A stretch of DNA of 63,501 nucleotides, the filler included. It is 5 parts of 5 records of this genome, joined end to end, with 100 filler letters (N's around TTAATTAATTAA, not from the genome) between each part and the next. Parts side by side here need not be neighbours in the genome. Positions count along the whole stretch, not along the records: positions 43,758 to 58,131 come from DRR378314_2136; 4 more parts are not named here. One strand, written 5' to 3'. This document shows positions 48,593-56,214 of this stretch, in pieces (position 1 is the first letter of the stretch; every line of letters begins with the position of its first letter). The translations under genes and the position numbers were made by a program. The notes under the pieces were generated by a model. It was not told where the DNA came from and did not search any database. It was given only the letters and a program-made list of their open reading frames with translations.

Positions 48593-48630
48593 GTGTCTAT
48601 GTGCTTGACGTATTAAGGGGGAGTGCGCAA

Positions 48631-49128
48631 ATGAAACGTCGTCACTTTTTGGGTCTTGCGGGACTAACGGGATTGGCAGGTGTTCTTCCGGGCGTCTCGT
48701 TTGGCTTTCCGCGTTTAGACCTTGAAGCAGCTCCTGGCCTTGAAAAGCTTGAATTAAGCGAAGAGGAATGGCGTGAACGCCTAACTGATGAAGCCTTTTA
48801 CGTGCTCCGCGAAGAGGGAACTGAGCGCGCCTTTTCAAGCCCCCTGGACGGAGAGGTTGGGGAAGGTGAGTACCGCTGTGCTGGGTGCGATCTTGTGCTT
48901 TTTACCAGCGCAATGAAGTATGACTCTGGCACCGGTTGGCCCAGTTTTTTCGAGCATGTTGAGGGCCACTTGTTAAGCAAGTTGGATTTCAAACTGGTGT
49001 GGCCACGCACAGAGTATCACTGCGCGCGCTGCGGCGGTCATCAAGGTCATGTCTTTGGTGATGGCCCAGAGCCTACCGGTTTGCGTTGGTGCAACAACGG
49101 TGTAGCGTTGCGGTTTGTGCCTGCATAA
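48631..49128 (+). CDS. msrB: Peptide-methionine (R)-S-oxide reductase with Tat signal
   Basis: MKRRHFLG twin-arginine leader; GTE, CAGC, SGTGWPSF, CARC, GHVF.DGP, RWCNNG. Confidence 0.93.
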   Translation: MKRRHFLGLAGLTGLAGVLPGVSFGFPRLDLEAAPGLEKLELSEEEWRERLTDEAFYVLREEGTERAFSSPLDGEVGEGEYRCAGCDLVLFTSAMKYDSGTGWPSFFEHVEGHLLSKLDFKLVWPRTEYHCARCGGHQGHVFGDGPEPTGLRWCNNGVALRFVPA

Positions 49129-49137
49129 AACACTATC

Positions 49138-49226
49138 CGCGGGTGCCTCGTTTGCTCGTCCCTCGCAAGACTCGTTACACCGCGCTACAGGGATGCAACC
49201 ATTGAACTCAGTGGGATTGTAGCGCG
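49138..49226. repeat. GTAG-type REP doublet: long REP (minus, 49138-49189) plus left part of a short REP split by the IS
   Basis: The 52-nt unit matches 56117-56168 with 3 mismatches; TGTAGCGCG at 49218-49226. Confidence 0.85.
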
Positions 49227-49254
49227 TATATGGACTCCTCCTCGTCTGCAAGCA

Positions 49255-49500
49255 CAAAAGGTCATAGCGGCACAGTCGACTGCTAGCGTATATCCGGTCT
49301 CGTAAAGGATGCCTAACGTGGACATCGGACCTTAATGGGCTATTCGCACGTCGGGTACCCTCAGCGTAAACGAGCTTTCTTGCTCTACGCGCTACACGGT
49401 ATGGCCCGACGTCGGTTCGACCTGTTCGCCATCTCTCTTGTGGTGGTGCAGTCGGGGCGGTAGGAACACCGGTTAAAGGTTCAACATTGATGGTCGCGTC
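49255..49500 (-). ncRNA. Predicted bridge/seekRNA in the non-coding region downstream of the transposase (ends approximate)
   Basis: Four short segments match the target flanks and the IS-end junction, lying in two stem-closed internal loops. Confidence 0.65.
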
Positions 49501-49506
49501 ACCTGT

Positions 49507-50541
49507 TTAAGCGGCGGCGGCCAACTCAGGGTTATACGGCACCTCGTAACGTGTGACGGCCCACGCCATACGCGCTGTCTTATTGGCGAGTGCCACGATC
49601 GCCACGTTGCGATGTTTGCGCACGGCAAGGTGCTTGATCCACTGGCTGAGTCCGTCGTCTTTTTTCACCGAATAACGAAGGACGGCGCGGGCGCCATGTA
49701 CCAGCAGCTTGCGTAAGTAACTATTGCCACGTTTACTGATCCCCAACAGGCGCTCTCTTCCGCCCGTGCTATGTTGACGCGGGGTCAGTCCTAATGAGGC
49801 GGCAAAGTCGCGTCCTCGCTTGTATATAGTACCGTCACCCAGCACACCTGATAAGGCACTGGCGGTGATGGGGCCAATGCCGCGGAGGGTCATCAAGCGC
49901 TTGGCAACCGGGTCGGTGTTGGCATGTGTTTCAATGGCGGACGTTAACTGCGCAACGCGCTCGTCTAAATAACGTAAGTCATCCGCTAAGTCGGCCAATA
50001 GGCGGCGAAAGCGGTCACTGAGCCCGTTGGTGGCATCCTCTAGCCAAAGAGGCAGCGCCCGCCGTAACTGCTGAATACCAGTGGGGGCAATAAACCCATA
50101 TTCACCGACGAGGCCACGGATTTGATTGGCCTTCGCTGTGCGCTGGCTAATCAGCTCTTCACGGATCCGGTGGGTGGCTTGACTGTCCTGTTGATCAACG
50201 GTTTTTACGGCCACGAAGCGCATCGTTGGACGGCCTAATGCTTCACAAATCGCTTCAGCATCTGCCCGATCATTTTTATTCGTTTTAACGTAAGGTTTCA
50301 CGAATTGGGCCGCTATGAGCTTCACATGGTAGCCACGCGCTTGAAGTTCGCGCGCCCAATAATGCGCCGATGCACATGCCTCCATGCCGATGGTGGCGCC
50401 TTGAGGAACGCGTCGACAGACAGCCTCCAGCCACTTGGCCCGGGTATATTTACCTCGCCATTGAGGCTTCTCATGCCGGTCAACGCCATGTACGTGAAAG
50501 ACAGACTTTGCGATATCCACACCAACTCGGCTAATGTTCAT
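49507..50541 (-). CDS. IS110-family DEDD transposase/recombinase
   Basis: GVDIAK, GMEAC, KNDRADA (D-E-D-D); C-terminal GLTPRQHSTGG serine motif; intact 344-aa ORF. Confidence 0.96.
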   Translation of the reverse strand: MNISRVGVDIAKSVFHVHGVDRHEKPQWRGKYTRAKWLEAVCRRVPQGATIGMEACASAHYWARELQARGYHVKLIAAQFVKPYVKTNKNDRADAEAICEALGRPTMRFVAVKTVDQQDSQATHRIREELISQRTAKANQIRGLVGEYGFIAPTGIQQLRRALPLWLEDATNGLSDRFRRLLADLADDLRYLDERVAQLTSAIETHANTDPVAKRLMTLRGIGPITASALSGVLGDGTIYKRGRDFAASLGLTPRQHSTGGRERLLGISKRGNSYLRKLLVHGARAVLRYSVKKDDGLSQWIKHLAVRKHRNVAIVALANKTARMAWAVTRYEVPYNPELAAAA

Positions 50542-50638
50542 ATGGGCTTCTCCTGACTCTCAAGCTGATAGTTTTCCAACCACCTACCAGTATGGCGCAC
50601 TGACGCCGGAGTAGGGTGAGGAGGAGTCCATCCCATTG

Positions 50639-50659
50639 GGTAAGCGAAGCGCACCCGCG
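50639..50659 (+). repeat. Right part of the REP interrupted by the IS
   Basis: GGTAAGCGAAGCGCACCCGCG is the reverse complement of 56063-56083. Confidence 0.85.
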
Positions 50660-50754
50660 AGGGTAGCTTCCCCATCGTGGCCAATTCATGCCAGCATCGT
50701 GCGATTGTGGTACCTTGTCGGCACCTCGAATGCTGCATGAGTTAGTTGCACGTT

Positions 50755-53130
50755 ATGGATGTCAAACAACGTATTATTTCACGCTTAGCCACTGAGCTAA
50801 ACGTACGGCCTGAACAGGTCTCCGCAACGGTAGAGCTTCTGGATGGTGGCGCTACCGTGCCGTTTATTGCTCGTTATCGTAAAGAGGTAACGGGTGCCCT
50901 CGATGATATTCAGCTGCGCCAACTGGATGAGCGCCTGCGCTATTTGCGCGAGCTGGAAGAGCGCCGTGAAGCCGTACTAGCGGCTATTGATGAGCAAGGC
51001 AAACTGGATGCCACGCTGAAAGCAACGATTCAGGCAGCTGAGACGAAGCAGCGCCTAGAAGACTTATACCTACCGTTTAAGAAAAAGCGCCGCACGAAAG
51101 CTCAAATTGCCCGTGAAGCGGGCTTAGAGCCTCTGGCTGATGCCCTGTTGGCCAATCCGCAGCTTAATCCCGAAAGCGAAGCAGCGCAGTACCTGCGCCC
51201 TGCAGAAGGCGATATTCCAGCCATTGAAGATGCTAAAGCCGCCCTTGATGGTGCTAAGCAAATTCTCATGGAACGCTTCGCCGAAGACCCTGAACTTATT
51301 GGCCGGTTGCGTGAACGGTTATGGCAAGAGGGCGAATTAAGTGCCCGCGTGCTAGATGGCAAGCAGCAGGAGGGCGCAAAGTTCTCTGACTACTTCGAAC
51401 ATGACGAGAAACTGGCCAAGGTGCCATCTCACCGTGCGCTTGCTATGTTCCGTGGTCGCAACGAAGGTGTTTTAAGCTTGGCGATTCGTCTGCCTGGCGA
51501 AGAGGACGCTCCAATTCATCCGGCCCAGGTCGCCATTGCCAAACAAGTGGGTATTAGCGATGAAGGCCGCCCCGCCGACAAATGGTTGAGCGAAGTAGTT
51601 CGCTGGACGTGGCGTGTGAAGCTCTATACCGCGCTTGAAACCGAGCTGTTGGGTCGTTTGCGCGAGCAGGCGGAGTTAACCGCTATCGAGGTGTTTGCCG
51701 CCAACCTGAAAGACCTTTTGCTAGCAGCACCAGCAGGGCAAAAAGTGACTCTCGCGATTGACCCGGGTCTAAGAACCGGCTGTAAGATTGCGGTGGTGGA
51801 TGCAACTGGTCAATTTATCGACCAAGCGACGATTTACCCCCATGCGCCGCAGAATCGCTGGGACGAATCGCTCAATGTGCTCGCTAAACTGGTTAAACAG
51901 CATGGCGTTCAACTCGTTGCTGTTGGCAATGGTACTGCCAGTCGCGAAACCGACAGGCTGGCAGGTGATCTGCTGAAGGCGTTAGCGCCCGAACATCGTT
52001 TAAGTAAAGTCATGGTGTCTGAGGCCGGTGCGTCGGTTTACTCCGCGTCGGAATACGCCTCTCGCGAGCTGCCAGATCTTGATGTCACCGTACGCGGCGC
52101 CGTCTCTATTGCTCGCCGCCTGCAAGACCCGCTTGCAGAACTGGTGAAAATCGAGCCGAAATCTATCGGTGTTGGTCAGTATCAGCACGATGTCTCCCAG
52201 GTGCAGCTGTCGCGTAGTCTAGAAGTCGTGATAGAAGACTGTGTTAACGCAGTCGGTGTGGATCTCAATACGGCATCTAGCGCATTGCTTTCACGTGTTG
52301 CTGGGCTAAGTGCTGCCATTGCTGAAAATATTGTTGCCCAACGCAACGTTAAAGGTGCCTTCACAAGCCGTAAAGAGCTGTTGGAAGTCAGCCGCCTTGG
52401 GCCAAAGACGTTTGAGCAGTGTGCTGGTTTTTTACGCATCAGCAACGCCGAAAATCCGCTGGATGCCAGCGCCGTTCACCCAGAGGCTTATACGCTGGTA
52501 GAGCGTATTGCCAAGCAGAATAGCCGAGATATAAAAGGTCTGATTGGTGATAGTGCGACGCTAAAGGCATTGAAACCCGCCGACTTCGCTGATGAGCGTT
52601 TTGGTGTTCCTACCGTCAGCGATATTCTCAAAGAGCTAGATAAGCCAGGACGCGACCCGCGCCCTGAGTTTAAGGCGGCTGAATTCCGTGAAGGCGTCGA
52701 AACACTCAAAGACCTGAAACTTGGCATGGTGCTGGAAGGTACCGTCACCAACGTGACCCACTTCGGTGCCTTTGTAGATATTGGCGTTCATCAAGACGGG
52801 CTCGTGCATATTTCAGCGCTCTCTGACCGCTTTATCGATGACCCCCGCAGTGTCGTCAAAGCAGGCGATATCGTTACCGTTAAGGTGATGAGCGTGGATA
52901 TCCCCCGCAAGCGGGTAGGGCTTTCAATGCGTTTGGATGATGAGCCAGAGCAGGCGCAAGCCGCTTCAAATTCCACTAACGACGAGCCCTGTAAGCCTGC
53001 GCGTAGTCAGCGGTCGGCCAGTTCTGGACAGAACGGTCGTGGTCAACGCCAGGGAGGAAAGTCCAGCGAAGCAGCGGCACCAATGGGCGCGCTCGGCGCA
53101 GCACTGCTTAAAGCAAAGCAGGGCAAATAG
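50755..53130 (+). CDS. tex: Tex/YhgF transcriptional accessory protein
   Basis: ATVPFIARYRKE, DPGLRTGCK, GNGTASRET, EAGASVYSAS, HhH, C-terminal S1 domain. Confidence 0.96.
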   Translation: MDVKQRIISRLATELNVRPEQVSATVELLDGGATVPFIARYRKEVTGALDDIQLRQLDERLRYLRELEERREAVLAAIDEQGKLDATLKATIQAAETKQRLEDLYLPFKKKRRTKAQIAREAGLEPLADALLANPQLNPESEAAQYLRPAEGDIPAIEDAKAALDGAKQILMERFAEDPELIGRLRERLWQEGELSARVLDGKQQEGAKFSDYFEHDEKLAKVPSHRALAMFRGRNEGVLSLAIRLPGEEDAPIHPAQVAIAKQVGISDEGRPADKWLSEVVRWTWRVKLYTALETELLGRLREQAELTAIEVFAANLKDLLLAAPAGQKVTLAIDPGLRTGCKIAVVDATGQFIDQATIYPHAPQNRWDESLNVLAKLVKQHGVQLVAVGNGTASRETDRLAGDLLKALAPEHRLSKVMVSEAGASVYSASEYASRELPDLDVTVRGAVSIARRLQDPLAELVKIEPKSIGVGQYQHDVSQVQLSRSLEVVIEDCVNAVGVDLNTASSALLSRVAGLSAAIAENIVAQRNVKGAFTSRKELLEVSRLGPKTFEQCAGFLRISNAENPLDASAVHPEAYTLVERIAKQNSRDIKGLIGDSATLKALKPADFADERFGVPTVSDILKELDKPGRDPRPEFKAAEFREGVETLKDLKLGMVLEGTVTNVTHFGAFVDIGVHQDGLVHISALSDRFIDDPRSVVKAGDIVTVKVMSVDIPRKRVGLSMRLDDEPEQAQAASNSTNDEPCKPARSQRSASSGQNGRGQRQGGKSSEAAAPMGALGAALLKAKQGK

Positions 53131-56062: not shown

Positions 56063-56168
56063 CGCGGGTGCGCTTCGCTTACCACGCGCTACAACCCCTG
56101 TGAATTCAGTATGTTTTGTAGCGCGGTGTAACGAATCTTGCGAGGCACGAGCAAATGAGGCACCCGCG
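56063..56168. repeat. Intact GTAG-type REP doublet: short REP (minus, 56063-56093) and long REP (plus, 56117-56168)
   Basis: Same two units as at 49138-50659; both spacers contain TGAAYTCAGT; lies between convergent genes. Confidence 0.88.
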
Positions 56169-56214
56169 AACGGTGCCCCAGCCGCCCCTGCTATGCAGCC
56201 TCTCACCTCACCTA

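Follow-up and report, generated by a model that had tools for sequence, protein, structure and literature searches.

A 63.5-kb stretch of DNA, referred to here as the window, carries at positions 49227–50638 of its minus strand what is very probably an intact IS1111-type element of the IS110 family, whose 3' non-coding region encodes a bridge RNA, or seekRNA. The anatomy of the element, the covariation of a structure on the RNA strand and the covariation of all four guides with either the flanks or the ends of the element are established here by comparison with relatives. By analogy with the experimentally studied relatives ISEc11, ISPa11, ISKpn4 and IS621, the RNA would be made, would be bound by the protein and would direct recombination. 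Throughout, the left end of the element is the 50638 side and the right end the 49227 side, the orientation being that of the transposase gene, which is the minus strand.

The comparison is based on a protein scan of genome contigs, which gave 561 confirmed relatives of the transposase. The best 80 were retained, with 48–95% identity, and they include Vreelandella sedimenti, Halomonas metagenome-assembled genomes, many Pseudomonas, Dyella, Aeromonas, Vibrio and various Betaproteobacteria. Together with the window this made 81 sequences, 62 of which have the family inverted repeat at the expected distance and non-coding regions that can be aligned; the other 19 were excluded from the alignment, seven with no repeat found (mostly at contig ends) and twelve with a wrong repeat or unusual spacing. 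Eleven nucleotides of both flanks were present at 53 of the 62 alignable loci, which gave 47 distinct guide pairs (alignment A1). The relatives are not independent of each other and the permutation figures inflate significance somewhat, yet the effect that links guides to flanks is large and involves many different targets.

The target loop of the RNA holds two guides and each follows the DNA beside its own element, which is the covariation test that the sequence-only reading of this DNA had proposed. Over the 47 guide pairs, the mean longest exact run of guide 1 against its own flank is 6.74 nt, compared with 3.40±0.16 nt on permutation, and that of guide 2 is 5.72 nt, compared with 3.30±0.14 nt (0/20000 in both cases). 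Controls that use the wrong strand (3.32 for guide 1 and 2.91 for guide 2) or the wrong side (3.15 and 3.00) give similarly low values. The footprint of guide 1 covers right-flank positions 0 to +7, paired in 31–47 of the 47 sequences, whilst that of guide 2 covers left-flank positions -5 to 0, paired in 41–43. The guide 1 columns read as the reverse complement of the right flank of the same locus, as with TGTGAGAGG at L059, TGTTGAAAAA at L065, TGTCTAATG at L070, CGTCCGGC at L082 and CGCGGGAA at L016, and the guide 2 columns give the sense of the left flank, as with GCAGCAGT at L066, GCTGGATT at L073 and GCGTTCCC at L016. Natural reprogramming appears to be implied by the presence of 47 distinct guide pairs on one scaffold.

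In the window, guide 1 belongs to an exact match of 11 nt between RNA positions 49396–49386 and the plus-strand flank at 49218–49228; among 5000 dinucleotide shuffles of the non-coding region, which is 263 nt long, five give a match of this length. The sequence-only reading had equated UGUAGCGCG(U) at 49396–49387 with the target flank; the match is indeed exact, but U 49387, together with A 49386, pairs with the right end of the element (..TA) and not with the target. This UA extension on the 3' side of guide 1, at positions -1 and -2, is confined to the Halomonas subgroup. The proposed second guide, GUUUAC at 49371–49366 with one wobble, lies inside guide 2 (49372–49364), which tracks the flank in the family. 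The accompanying suggestion that this guide is displaced by about 2 nt from the crossover was not borne out, as guide 2 runs up to the crossover and its nine positions comprise seven Watson-Crick pairs, one G-U wobble and one mismatch. At L014 the same guide 2 matches the flank except for one wobble. Such short matches in the window sequence would be convincing only through the family comparison.

The second loop follows the element rather than its target. Its 5' guide has three initial bases that are complementary to left-end bases 5–7 in 54 of 62 loci, and in four more by G-U pairing, with four covarying variants (CCC/GGG, UCC/GGA, CUC/GAG and ACC/GGU). The variable part of its 3' guide, 5 nt in length, equals the right end of the same element in 57 of 62 loci and occurs in five variants (TATAC, TACAC, TGTAC, TGTAT and TCTAT). 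Since both guides track the ends of their own element, this is the donor loop, and CCCAUU and AUAUAC are the donor guides that they had been taken to be. The circle junction previously written as CCCATT-GT-ATAT is likewise the one inferred from the element ends when 7 bp are counted on the left and 3 bp on the right. Both 3' guides were also said to end in UAC-GCU: a Y-G end is found family-wide (Y being C or T), whilst the bases beyond it show no covariation with the target. An extension of donor guide 2 that reads the product, in which the bases after the shared pyrimidine would track the right flank, was tested and rejected: +1 is almost always G, and neither +2 nor +3 exceeds the permuted level. 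At L040, the donor guide (AUACAC) would predict a right end two bases longer than the one present (..CCATAC|GTGGGTAGAG), yet target guide 1 of this locus matches the flank, TGGGTAGA.

The fold that presents these guides is conserved. RNAalifold, applied to the 47 sequences of alignment A1, recovers the stems of the sequence-only reading, in which ACGUCGGG/CCCGACGU and UACC/GGUA close the target loop, and the outer of these two stems (helix 1) shows double-sided, compensatory changes at all eight pairs, with 95.5% of cells paired. The consensus structure has 21 pairs in five helices. Overall, 96.2% of 985 cells are paired, compared with 77.8±0.7% in shuffles and 26–38% when partners are slid, and 195 cells are changed on both sides, compared with 52.8±8.3 in shuffles (0/500 reach 195) and only 6–22 when partners are slid by 1–3 columns. 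At least one double change is seen at 16 of the 21 pairs. The inner stem of the donor loop (helix 5) is paired in 100% of cells, with pair 122/162 changed on both sides in 26 of the 47 sequences. The fold belongs to the transposase-sense strand because G-U pairs are frequent, and are so on that strand only. Taken as a single sequence the region is not unusually stable (z = -0.96), and hence stability alone would have missed the fold. The encoded RNA would be roughly 160 nt long, with a conserved block at 49435–49273. On the 5' side of the target loop, the block GAUGGCGAACAGGUCGAACCG (49413–49433, minus strand) is nearly invariant across relatives of 48–95% protein identity and includes a short hairpin that does not vary, GGU-CGA-ACC; the block may serve as a 5' module that binds protein.

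The covariance model built from alignment A1 (R1), also among the checks proposed beforehand, finds a single match in the whole window, the minus-strand region 49273–49435. Outside its training set the model matches 17 of 18 loci, 16 of them at full length and one (L063) cut by the locus end, with no match in L116; all 16 of the excluded loci that were rescanned gave matches, L063 again being cut. Among held-out loci with recognisable ends, guide 1 matches the right flank in seven of eight as judged by eye, and these seven include an Azotobacter plasmid copy (L124) and a Klebsiella plasmid copy (L126) with 51% protein identity. The segments named in the sequence-only reading were all found on the minus strand where it had placed them, and their positions are collected with those of the other features in the table.

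Table. Positions in the window of the insertion sequence, its gene, the proposed RNA with its guides, and the target DNA
Feature	Position	Strand	Remarks
Whole insertion sequence	49227..50638	-	1412 bp, counting 7 bp beyond the left inverted repeat and 3 bp beyond the right
Transposase/recombinase gene, intact	49507..50541	-	344 aa; Pfam, NCBIfam and IS621 8wt6 matches
Left subterminal inverted repeat, ATGGACTCCTCCTC on minus strand	50618..50631	-	14 nt; 100% complementary to 49230-49243
Right subterminal inverted repeat	49230..49243	-	14 nt; pairs with left repeat
Conserved bridge/seekRNA region (proposed)	49273..49435	-	Covariance model R1: 127.8 bits, E 2.5e-38, full length
Target-loop outer stem, 5' arm ACGUCGGG	49405..49412	-	Pairs with 49348-49355
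Target-loop outer stem, 3' arm CCCGACGU	49348..49355	-	Pairs with 49405-49412
Target-loop stem UACC / GGUA	49401-49398 / 49359-49356	-	
Target guide 1, UGUAGCGCG	49388..49396	-	Pairs with top strand: shared C and 8 nt of right flank
Hairpin between target guides, GAGC-AAGAAA-GCUC	49372..49385	-	Helix 3: 4 pairs, 3 with double-sided changes
Target guide 2, CGUUUACGC	49364..49372	-	Sense of left flank CGCTTACCC; pairs with bottom strand
Donor guide 1, CCCAUU	49334..49339	-	Pairs with top strand of left end AATGGG
Donor-loop inner stem	49296..49331	-	GGUC 49331-49328 with GACC 49299-49296
Hairpin inside donor-loop inner stem	GAUGUC 49326-49321 / GGCAUC 49313-49308	-	Predicted from sequence only
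Donor guide 2, AUAUAC	49288..49293	-	Sense of right end ..ATATA and shared C
Possible -35 box of junction promoter, TTGCAG	49246..49251	-	In-silico circle junction
Right target flank, CGCGCTACA on minus strand	49218..49226	-	First 8 nt CGCGCTAC same in L012-L014
Left target flank, CGCTTACC on minus strand	50639..50646	-	Contigs of four RNA-library runs agree to 50646, then diverge
Interrupted REP-like palindrome, larger part	49137..49226	.	Remainder 50639-50660; inner hairpin 49181-49189 / 49218-49226

The ends of the element were set by copies of about 90% identity elsewhere (L012–L014), together with the contig ends L117–L119 in one of those assemblies. L012 is a collapsed contig of 1422 nt that begins CAATGGG, and the ends CAATGGG..ATA are common to copies at different sites. 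In transposase orientation, the element therefore reads CAATGGG-ATGGACTCC ... GGAGTCCAT-ATA, from 50638 down to 49227. The inverted-repeat motif is found only twice in the window by motif search. IS1111 elements are marked by long subterminal repeats, extensions of 7 bp on the left and 3 bp on the right, and a long non-coding region downstream of tnp (PMC11187229). Here the repeats are perfect over 14 nt, within the near-perfect repeats of about 11–17 bp that characterise the group, and 277 nt of non-coding DNA separate the stop codon from the end of the right repeat, compared with about 97 nt upstream of the gene. Extensions of 7 and 3 bp fit the ends common to copies at different sites but not the length of the uninterrupted Halomonas REP sites described below.

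The transposase matches the Pfam domains DEDD_Tnp_IS110 (PF01548, 1.2e-14) and Transposase_20 (PF02371, 5.8e-22), and the NCBIfam family NF033542, 'IS110 family RNA-guided transposase', at 331 bits (cut-off 140) over positions 2–341 of 343. A RuvC-like DEDD domain at the N terminus, Transposase_20 at the C terminus and a length of 330–350 aa, here 344 aa, are features of IS1111 transposases. The suggestion that this is a new programmable recombinase thus applies to the orthologue, which is new, but not to the family, which already bears that name. The match to IS621 (8wt6, E 4.8e-07) is confined to the C-terminal domain, where GLTPRQHSTG aligns with GLTPRRYESG, the catalytic-serine loop of IS621; the same stretch contains the C-terminal motif of IS1111 proteins, GL-P----S(T)G (PMC11187229). 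The element and its interrupted target are bracketed by msrB (48601–49128, plus strand) and tex (50746–53130, plus strand). No Rfam family reaches its gathering threshold between 48900 and 50900. A SNORD26 match at 49185–49223 on the plus strand (E 0.91, at 19 bits where the gathering score is 44) lies on the hairpin of the target and was dismissed as chance.

The target is a repetitive extragenic palindromic (REP)-like element of about 110 nt, formed of outer arms (CGCGGGTGC / GCACCCGCG) around an inner hairpin (CGCGCTACA / TGTAGCGCG). The window has two copies, one intact at 56064–56170 and the other interrupted by the insertion sequence. The REP-like copies of assembly G050 lie in arrays at intervals of about 175–195 nt (for example C34:43848-44584 and C6:299790-300711). 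On the right side, an RNA-library contig of another copy of the element agrees with the window down to 49218 and then diverges. On the left, four RNA-library runs, which belong to three studies, have contigs with the same flank, ..CGCTTACC, and the bases before CAATGGG are ..TTACC in the window, L013, L117, L118 and L119, and ..TTACG in L014. The target would thus have the form CGCTTAC(C/G)-C-GCGCTACA, with CGCTTACG-C-GCGCTACA and CGCTTACC-C-GCGCTACA as candidates. When the two guides of the window are overlapped at the C, they give exactly the joined flanks of L014.

A mechanism can be proposed from this arrangement. The RNA would contain two stem-closed internal loops, the first to read the insertion site and the second to read the joined ends of a circular form. 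In loop 1, the right half-site, C-GCGCTACA, would be read on its top strand by the 5' strand UGUAGCGCG, and the left half-site, CGCTTAC(C/G)-C, on its bottom strand by the 3' strand CGUUUACGC, such that both target guides overlap at one pyrimidine that is present on either side of the inserted element. In loop 2, CCCAU(U) would be the partner of the left end AATGGG, whilst the right end would be paired on its bottom strand with AUAUAC. A recombinase that holds both loops would then exchange strands between the circle junction and the REP-like palindrome, and the element would land in one orientation without any longer duplication.

The shared pyrimidine is seen across the family. In 58 of 62 loci (45 C/C and 13 T/T) the left end begins with the same base that follows the right end; the base before it is variable on the left side, where it is tracked by guide 2, and always A on the right, and the base that follows it in the target is G in 57 of 61 loci. 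For the Aeromonas relative L076, uninterrupted sites can be found in 9 of 41 genomes, and in 15 of 16 matched places these read GGTCGAAG-T-GTTAACAGG, with a single T. One pyrimidine is therefore common to target and element, which corresponds to 7+3 extensions with no duplication, and this is the description given by the Hall laboratory. Two matches only were obtained for Pseudomonas empty sites, which are uninformative. Under 7+3 the predicted target in the window is CGCTTACC-C-GCGCTACA.

Several observations weigh against the reading of this element as an intact one guided by its RNA. In the window copy, guide 2 has a mismatch at -1, with G in the RNA and C in the flank. The longest exact match at the left junction is only 5 nt, a length that 4776 of 5000 shuffles reach, so that it does not rise above chance alone, as the sequence-only reading had cautioned of such short matches. 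The joined flanks were not found in the window at up to three mismatches, and they equal neither the copy at 56076–56093 nor any of 33 uninterrupted REP sites from three Halomonas/Vreelandella assemblies, whose spacers are CA (16 sites), GC (15) or 3 nt (2); the intact copy in the window reads CGCTTAC-CA-CGCGCTACA at this site. Each of these is longer by one or two bases between TTAC and CGCGCTAC. A promoter scan gave no sigma-70-like site in the linear element. Copies with 95–99% identity are present in public RNA-library runs, as contigs only, in which strand, ends and level are invisible and DNA carry-over is possible. Finally, the insertion site of one relative, L125, matches neither of its target guides. 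This is a 72%-identical copy on the Citrobacter freundii IncC plasmid pKHM-1 (NZ_AP014939.1, locus 800-2300), located between mobI and a parM-like gene; its guides predict approximately GTGTAAG-C-GTAACACAA, whilst the actual flanks are GCAGCATAC-C-ACATGTATGG, and it may be an off-target or differently mediated insertion.

With respect to the crossover, no single model (7+3, 6+3, 7+2, or a core of one or two bases) fits both of the junctions observed (..TTACC|C.. and ..TTACG|C..) and the uninterrupted copies. The 6+3 model fits L014 and the commonest REP variant of its own genome, whereas the 7+3 model fits the Aeromonas relative, the literature and the -10 box formed at the junction. Either the element picks a rare, shorter REP variant or the crossover sits elsewhere in the Halomonas subgroup. 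A fuller scheme can be put forward only tentatively and is unlikely: an IS1111 subfamily that targets REP sequences would use a single-pyrimidine core, with a near-invariant G next to it in the target and an A next to it in the donor, both 3'-strand guides, ending in Y-G, would read one base past the crossover, and the top-strand target guide of the Halomonas members would carry in addition a two-base UA 'handshake' that pairs only with the right end of the element itself. If this were so, direction (insertion against excision) and the least homology that donor and target must share would follow other rules than those of the CT core of IS621, and the Halomonas element would select a rare REP variant that is one base shorter than every uninterrupted copy found.

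The mismatch in guide 2 could also mean that RNA gene and element are genuine but that the copy in the window is resting or crippled, its left target guide not fully matching the occupied sites and its movement inefficient. This is distinctly unlikely. Guide 2 ends ..ACGC against a left flank of ..ACCC in the window, and apparently also in the copies of runs X2 and X7, for which no differences are listed at 49364–49372; at this position the sister copies have either C in the guide (L012 and L013, which carry ..ACCC) or a site with G (L014). An exact empty site was not found in the window or in the three Halomonas/Vreelandella assemblies. Nevertheless, the reading frame is full length, the RNA is full length against the family model, both repeats are perfect, and near-identical copies are found at several sites in several assemblies.

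It is very improbable that the folded region serves as something other than a guide RNA, whether as a regulatory RNA, as the 3' untranslated region (UTR) of the transposase mRNA or, in the manner of IS200/IS605 elements, as a guide made of single-stranded DNA. The RNA-library contigs give no direct view of the RNA, G-T wobbles are possible in DNA too, and regulatory small RNAs are described for other IS110-family elements, such as Asr9 and Ssr9 of ISPpu9 (PMC12288879). However, a regulatory RNA has no cause to covary with DNA outside the element, as both strands of loop 1 do; moreover, the RNA guidance of this transposase family has been shown biochemically and structurally (PMC11187229 and PMC11208158), and the layout agrees with that of the published IS1111 seekRNA. 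Chance similarity between a GC-rich region and the GC-rich repeat beside it is hardly credible, even with a weak left-junction match and 6-nt donor matches that can be judged by the family alone, given that the 11-nt match is rare in shuffles, that the same columns track different flanks in 47 relatives (0/20000) and that the helices carry compensatory changes; guide–flank, helix and donor-end covariation already refute it.

Expression of the guide RNA, if it is as proposed, may depend upon the circular form. In an in-silico circle of the window element, TTGCAG is followed after 17 nt by TACAAT, which is assembled from the TA of the right end and the CAAT of the left end. Of the 62 loci, 55 form TAYAAT at the equivalent junction, and 50 have one of the boxes TTGCAA, TTGGCA and TTGCAG at 16–18 nt upstream of this -10 sequence. 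From such a circle-junction promoter, transcription would run through the transposase gene and on into the RNA. The family has known examples of junction promoters, with Pjunc of ISEc11 cited in PMC13626964 and that of IS621 in PMC11208158. Of the RNA-library contigs, that of run X2 spans 49218–49842 and that of X7 spans 49318–49469, both over the guide loops, whilst the size-fractionated runs X4 and X6 do not cover them; the presence or absence of a contig is uninformative with regard to a discrete small RNA.

A Halomonas-like, salt-tolerant host is plausible, in keeping with the earlier suggestion of a probable halophile, and the neighbouring pckA is 82–84% identical to that of three Halomonas/Vreelandella assemblies and 69% identical to that of G001. 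The latter was the 'nearest' genome, yet neither it nor its genus has the element, the msrB flank or the REP target. G001 shares 28% of the sampled 31-mers of the window without similarity in the msrB flank, and the shared 31-mers must come from some other part of the window, either conserved or mobile. A second element in a Vreelandella assembly (L116, G048:C29:9356-12457) has the left end and repeat in common (GGTAAG|CAATGGGATGGACTCCTCCTC) and a different gene start.

Relatives are also abundant on plasmids. At least 5000 plasmid records have a match, and of the best 5000, 4994 are below 60% identity, 2762 of these being from Klebsiella. The Enterobacterales plasmid relatives are annotated merely as 'IS110 family transposase'; we take them to be probably of the IS4321/IS5075 or ISKpn4 type. 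The Klebsiella pneumoniae plasmid copy L126, with about 51% amino acid identity, scores 111.8 bits with model R1, and its guides match its own flanks, GCUUUGUU with GCTTTGT-T and UUUAUUCA with T-GAATAAA. The RNA architecture of these plasmid relatives is as in the Halomonas element, whereas the repeat (ATGGTCGCCTCC) and the target differ.

That IS1111 elements are guided by RNA has been in the literature since 2024, and annotation of the protein family already says as much, so that existing knowledge is not altered. What is added here is one intact, fully readable bridge recombinase of the IS1111 type from a salt-tolerant lineage, together with a comparative set of 47 natural guide pairs on one RNA scaffold, in which both target and donor rules can be read by covariation. 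These provide raw material for widening the bridge-recombinase toolbox or for studying retargeting. A literature search that combined Halomonas with IS1111 found no paper on such an element, as judged by titles and the opening parts of abstracts; Supplementary Table 5 and the covariance models of Durrant et al. may list the subfamily already.

The closest systems in kind, by anatomy and guide layout, are ISEc11, ISPa11, ISKpn4 and ISPst6; ISPpu9 and ISPpu10 were considered as closest relatives and rejected. The RNAs of the former four co-purify with the transposase and are reprogrammable (PMC11187229, Siddiquee et al. 2024), and IS1111 seekRNAs in general are located downstream of tnp, their top-strand match lying on the 5' side of the bottom-strand one, with an overlap of both in the target (PMC11187229). 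Durrant et al. predicted a bridge RNA for 93% of IS1111 elements and placed it in the right end (PMC11208160). Like these four, the Halomonas element has long subterminal repeats and a DEDD transposase close to 340 aa in length, and its extensions would likewise be 7 bp on the left and 3 bp on the right. As in the elements of Siddiquee et al., its non-coding region is downstream of tnp, its guides overlap at the insertion point and insertion would leave no longer duplication; ISPa11 likewise targets REP sequences. It differs from them, in a comparison made by description, in its Halomonas/Vreelandella host and in its target, CGCTTAC(C/G)-C-GCGCTACA. Moreover, Siddiquee et al. describe the target matches, whereas the donor loop and the covariation have been worked out here for the subfamily of the Halomonas element.

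With IS621, as portrayed in PMC11208160, PMC11208158 and PMC13626964, the element has in common an RNA of two loops, target then donor, in which top- and bottom-strand guides overlap at a core. According to PMC11208158, the second core base of IS621 is nearly invariant and the first loose, as appears to be the case here. The promoter assembled at the circle junction, here in silico, is a further likeness, and UA at 49387–49386 resembles the handshake dinucleotides that favour insertion in IS621 (PMC11208158 and PMC13626964). The IS110 layout claimed in the sequence-only reading is thus correct in the order of the loops, but within each loop the guides are arranged in the IS1111 manner, with the 5' guide directed to the right-side top strand and the 3' guide to the left-side bottom strand, which is the reverse of IS621 (PMC11208158). 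Unlike IS621, in which the RNA is 5' of the gene, the RNA of the Halomonas element is 3' of it, one shared base (C or T) takes the place of the CT core, and the element has long inverted repeats.

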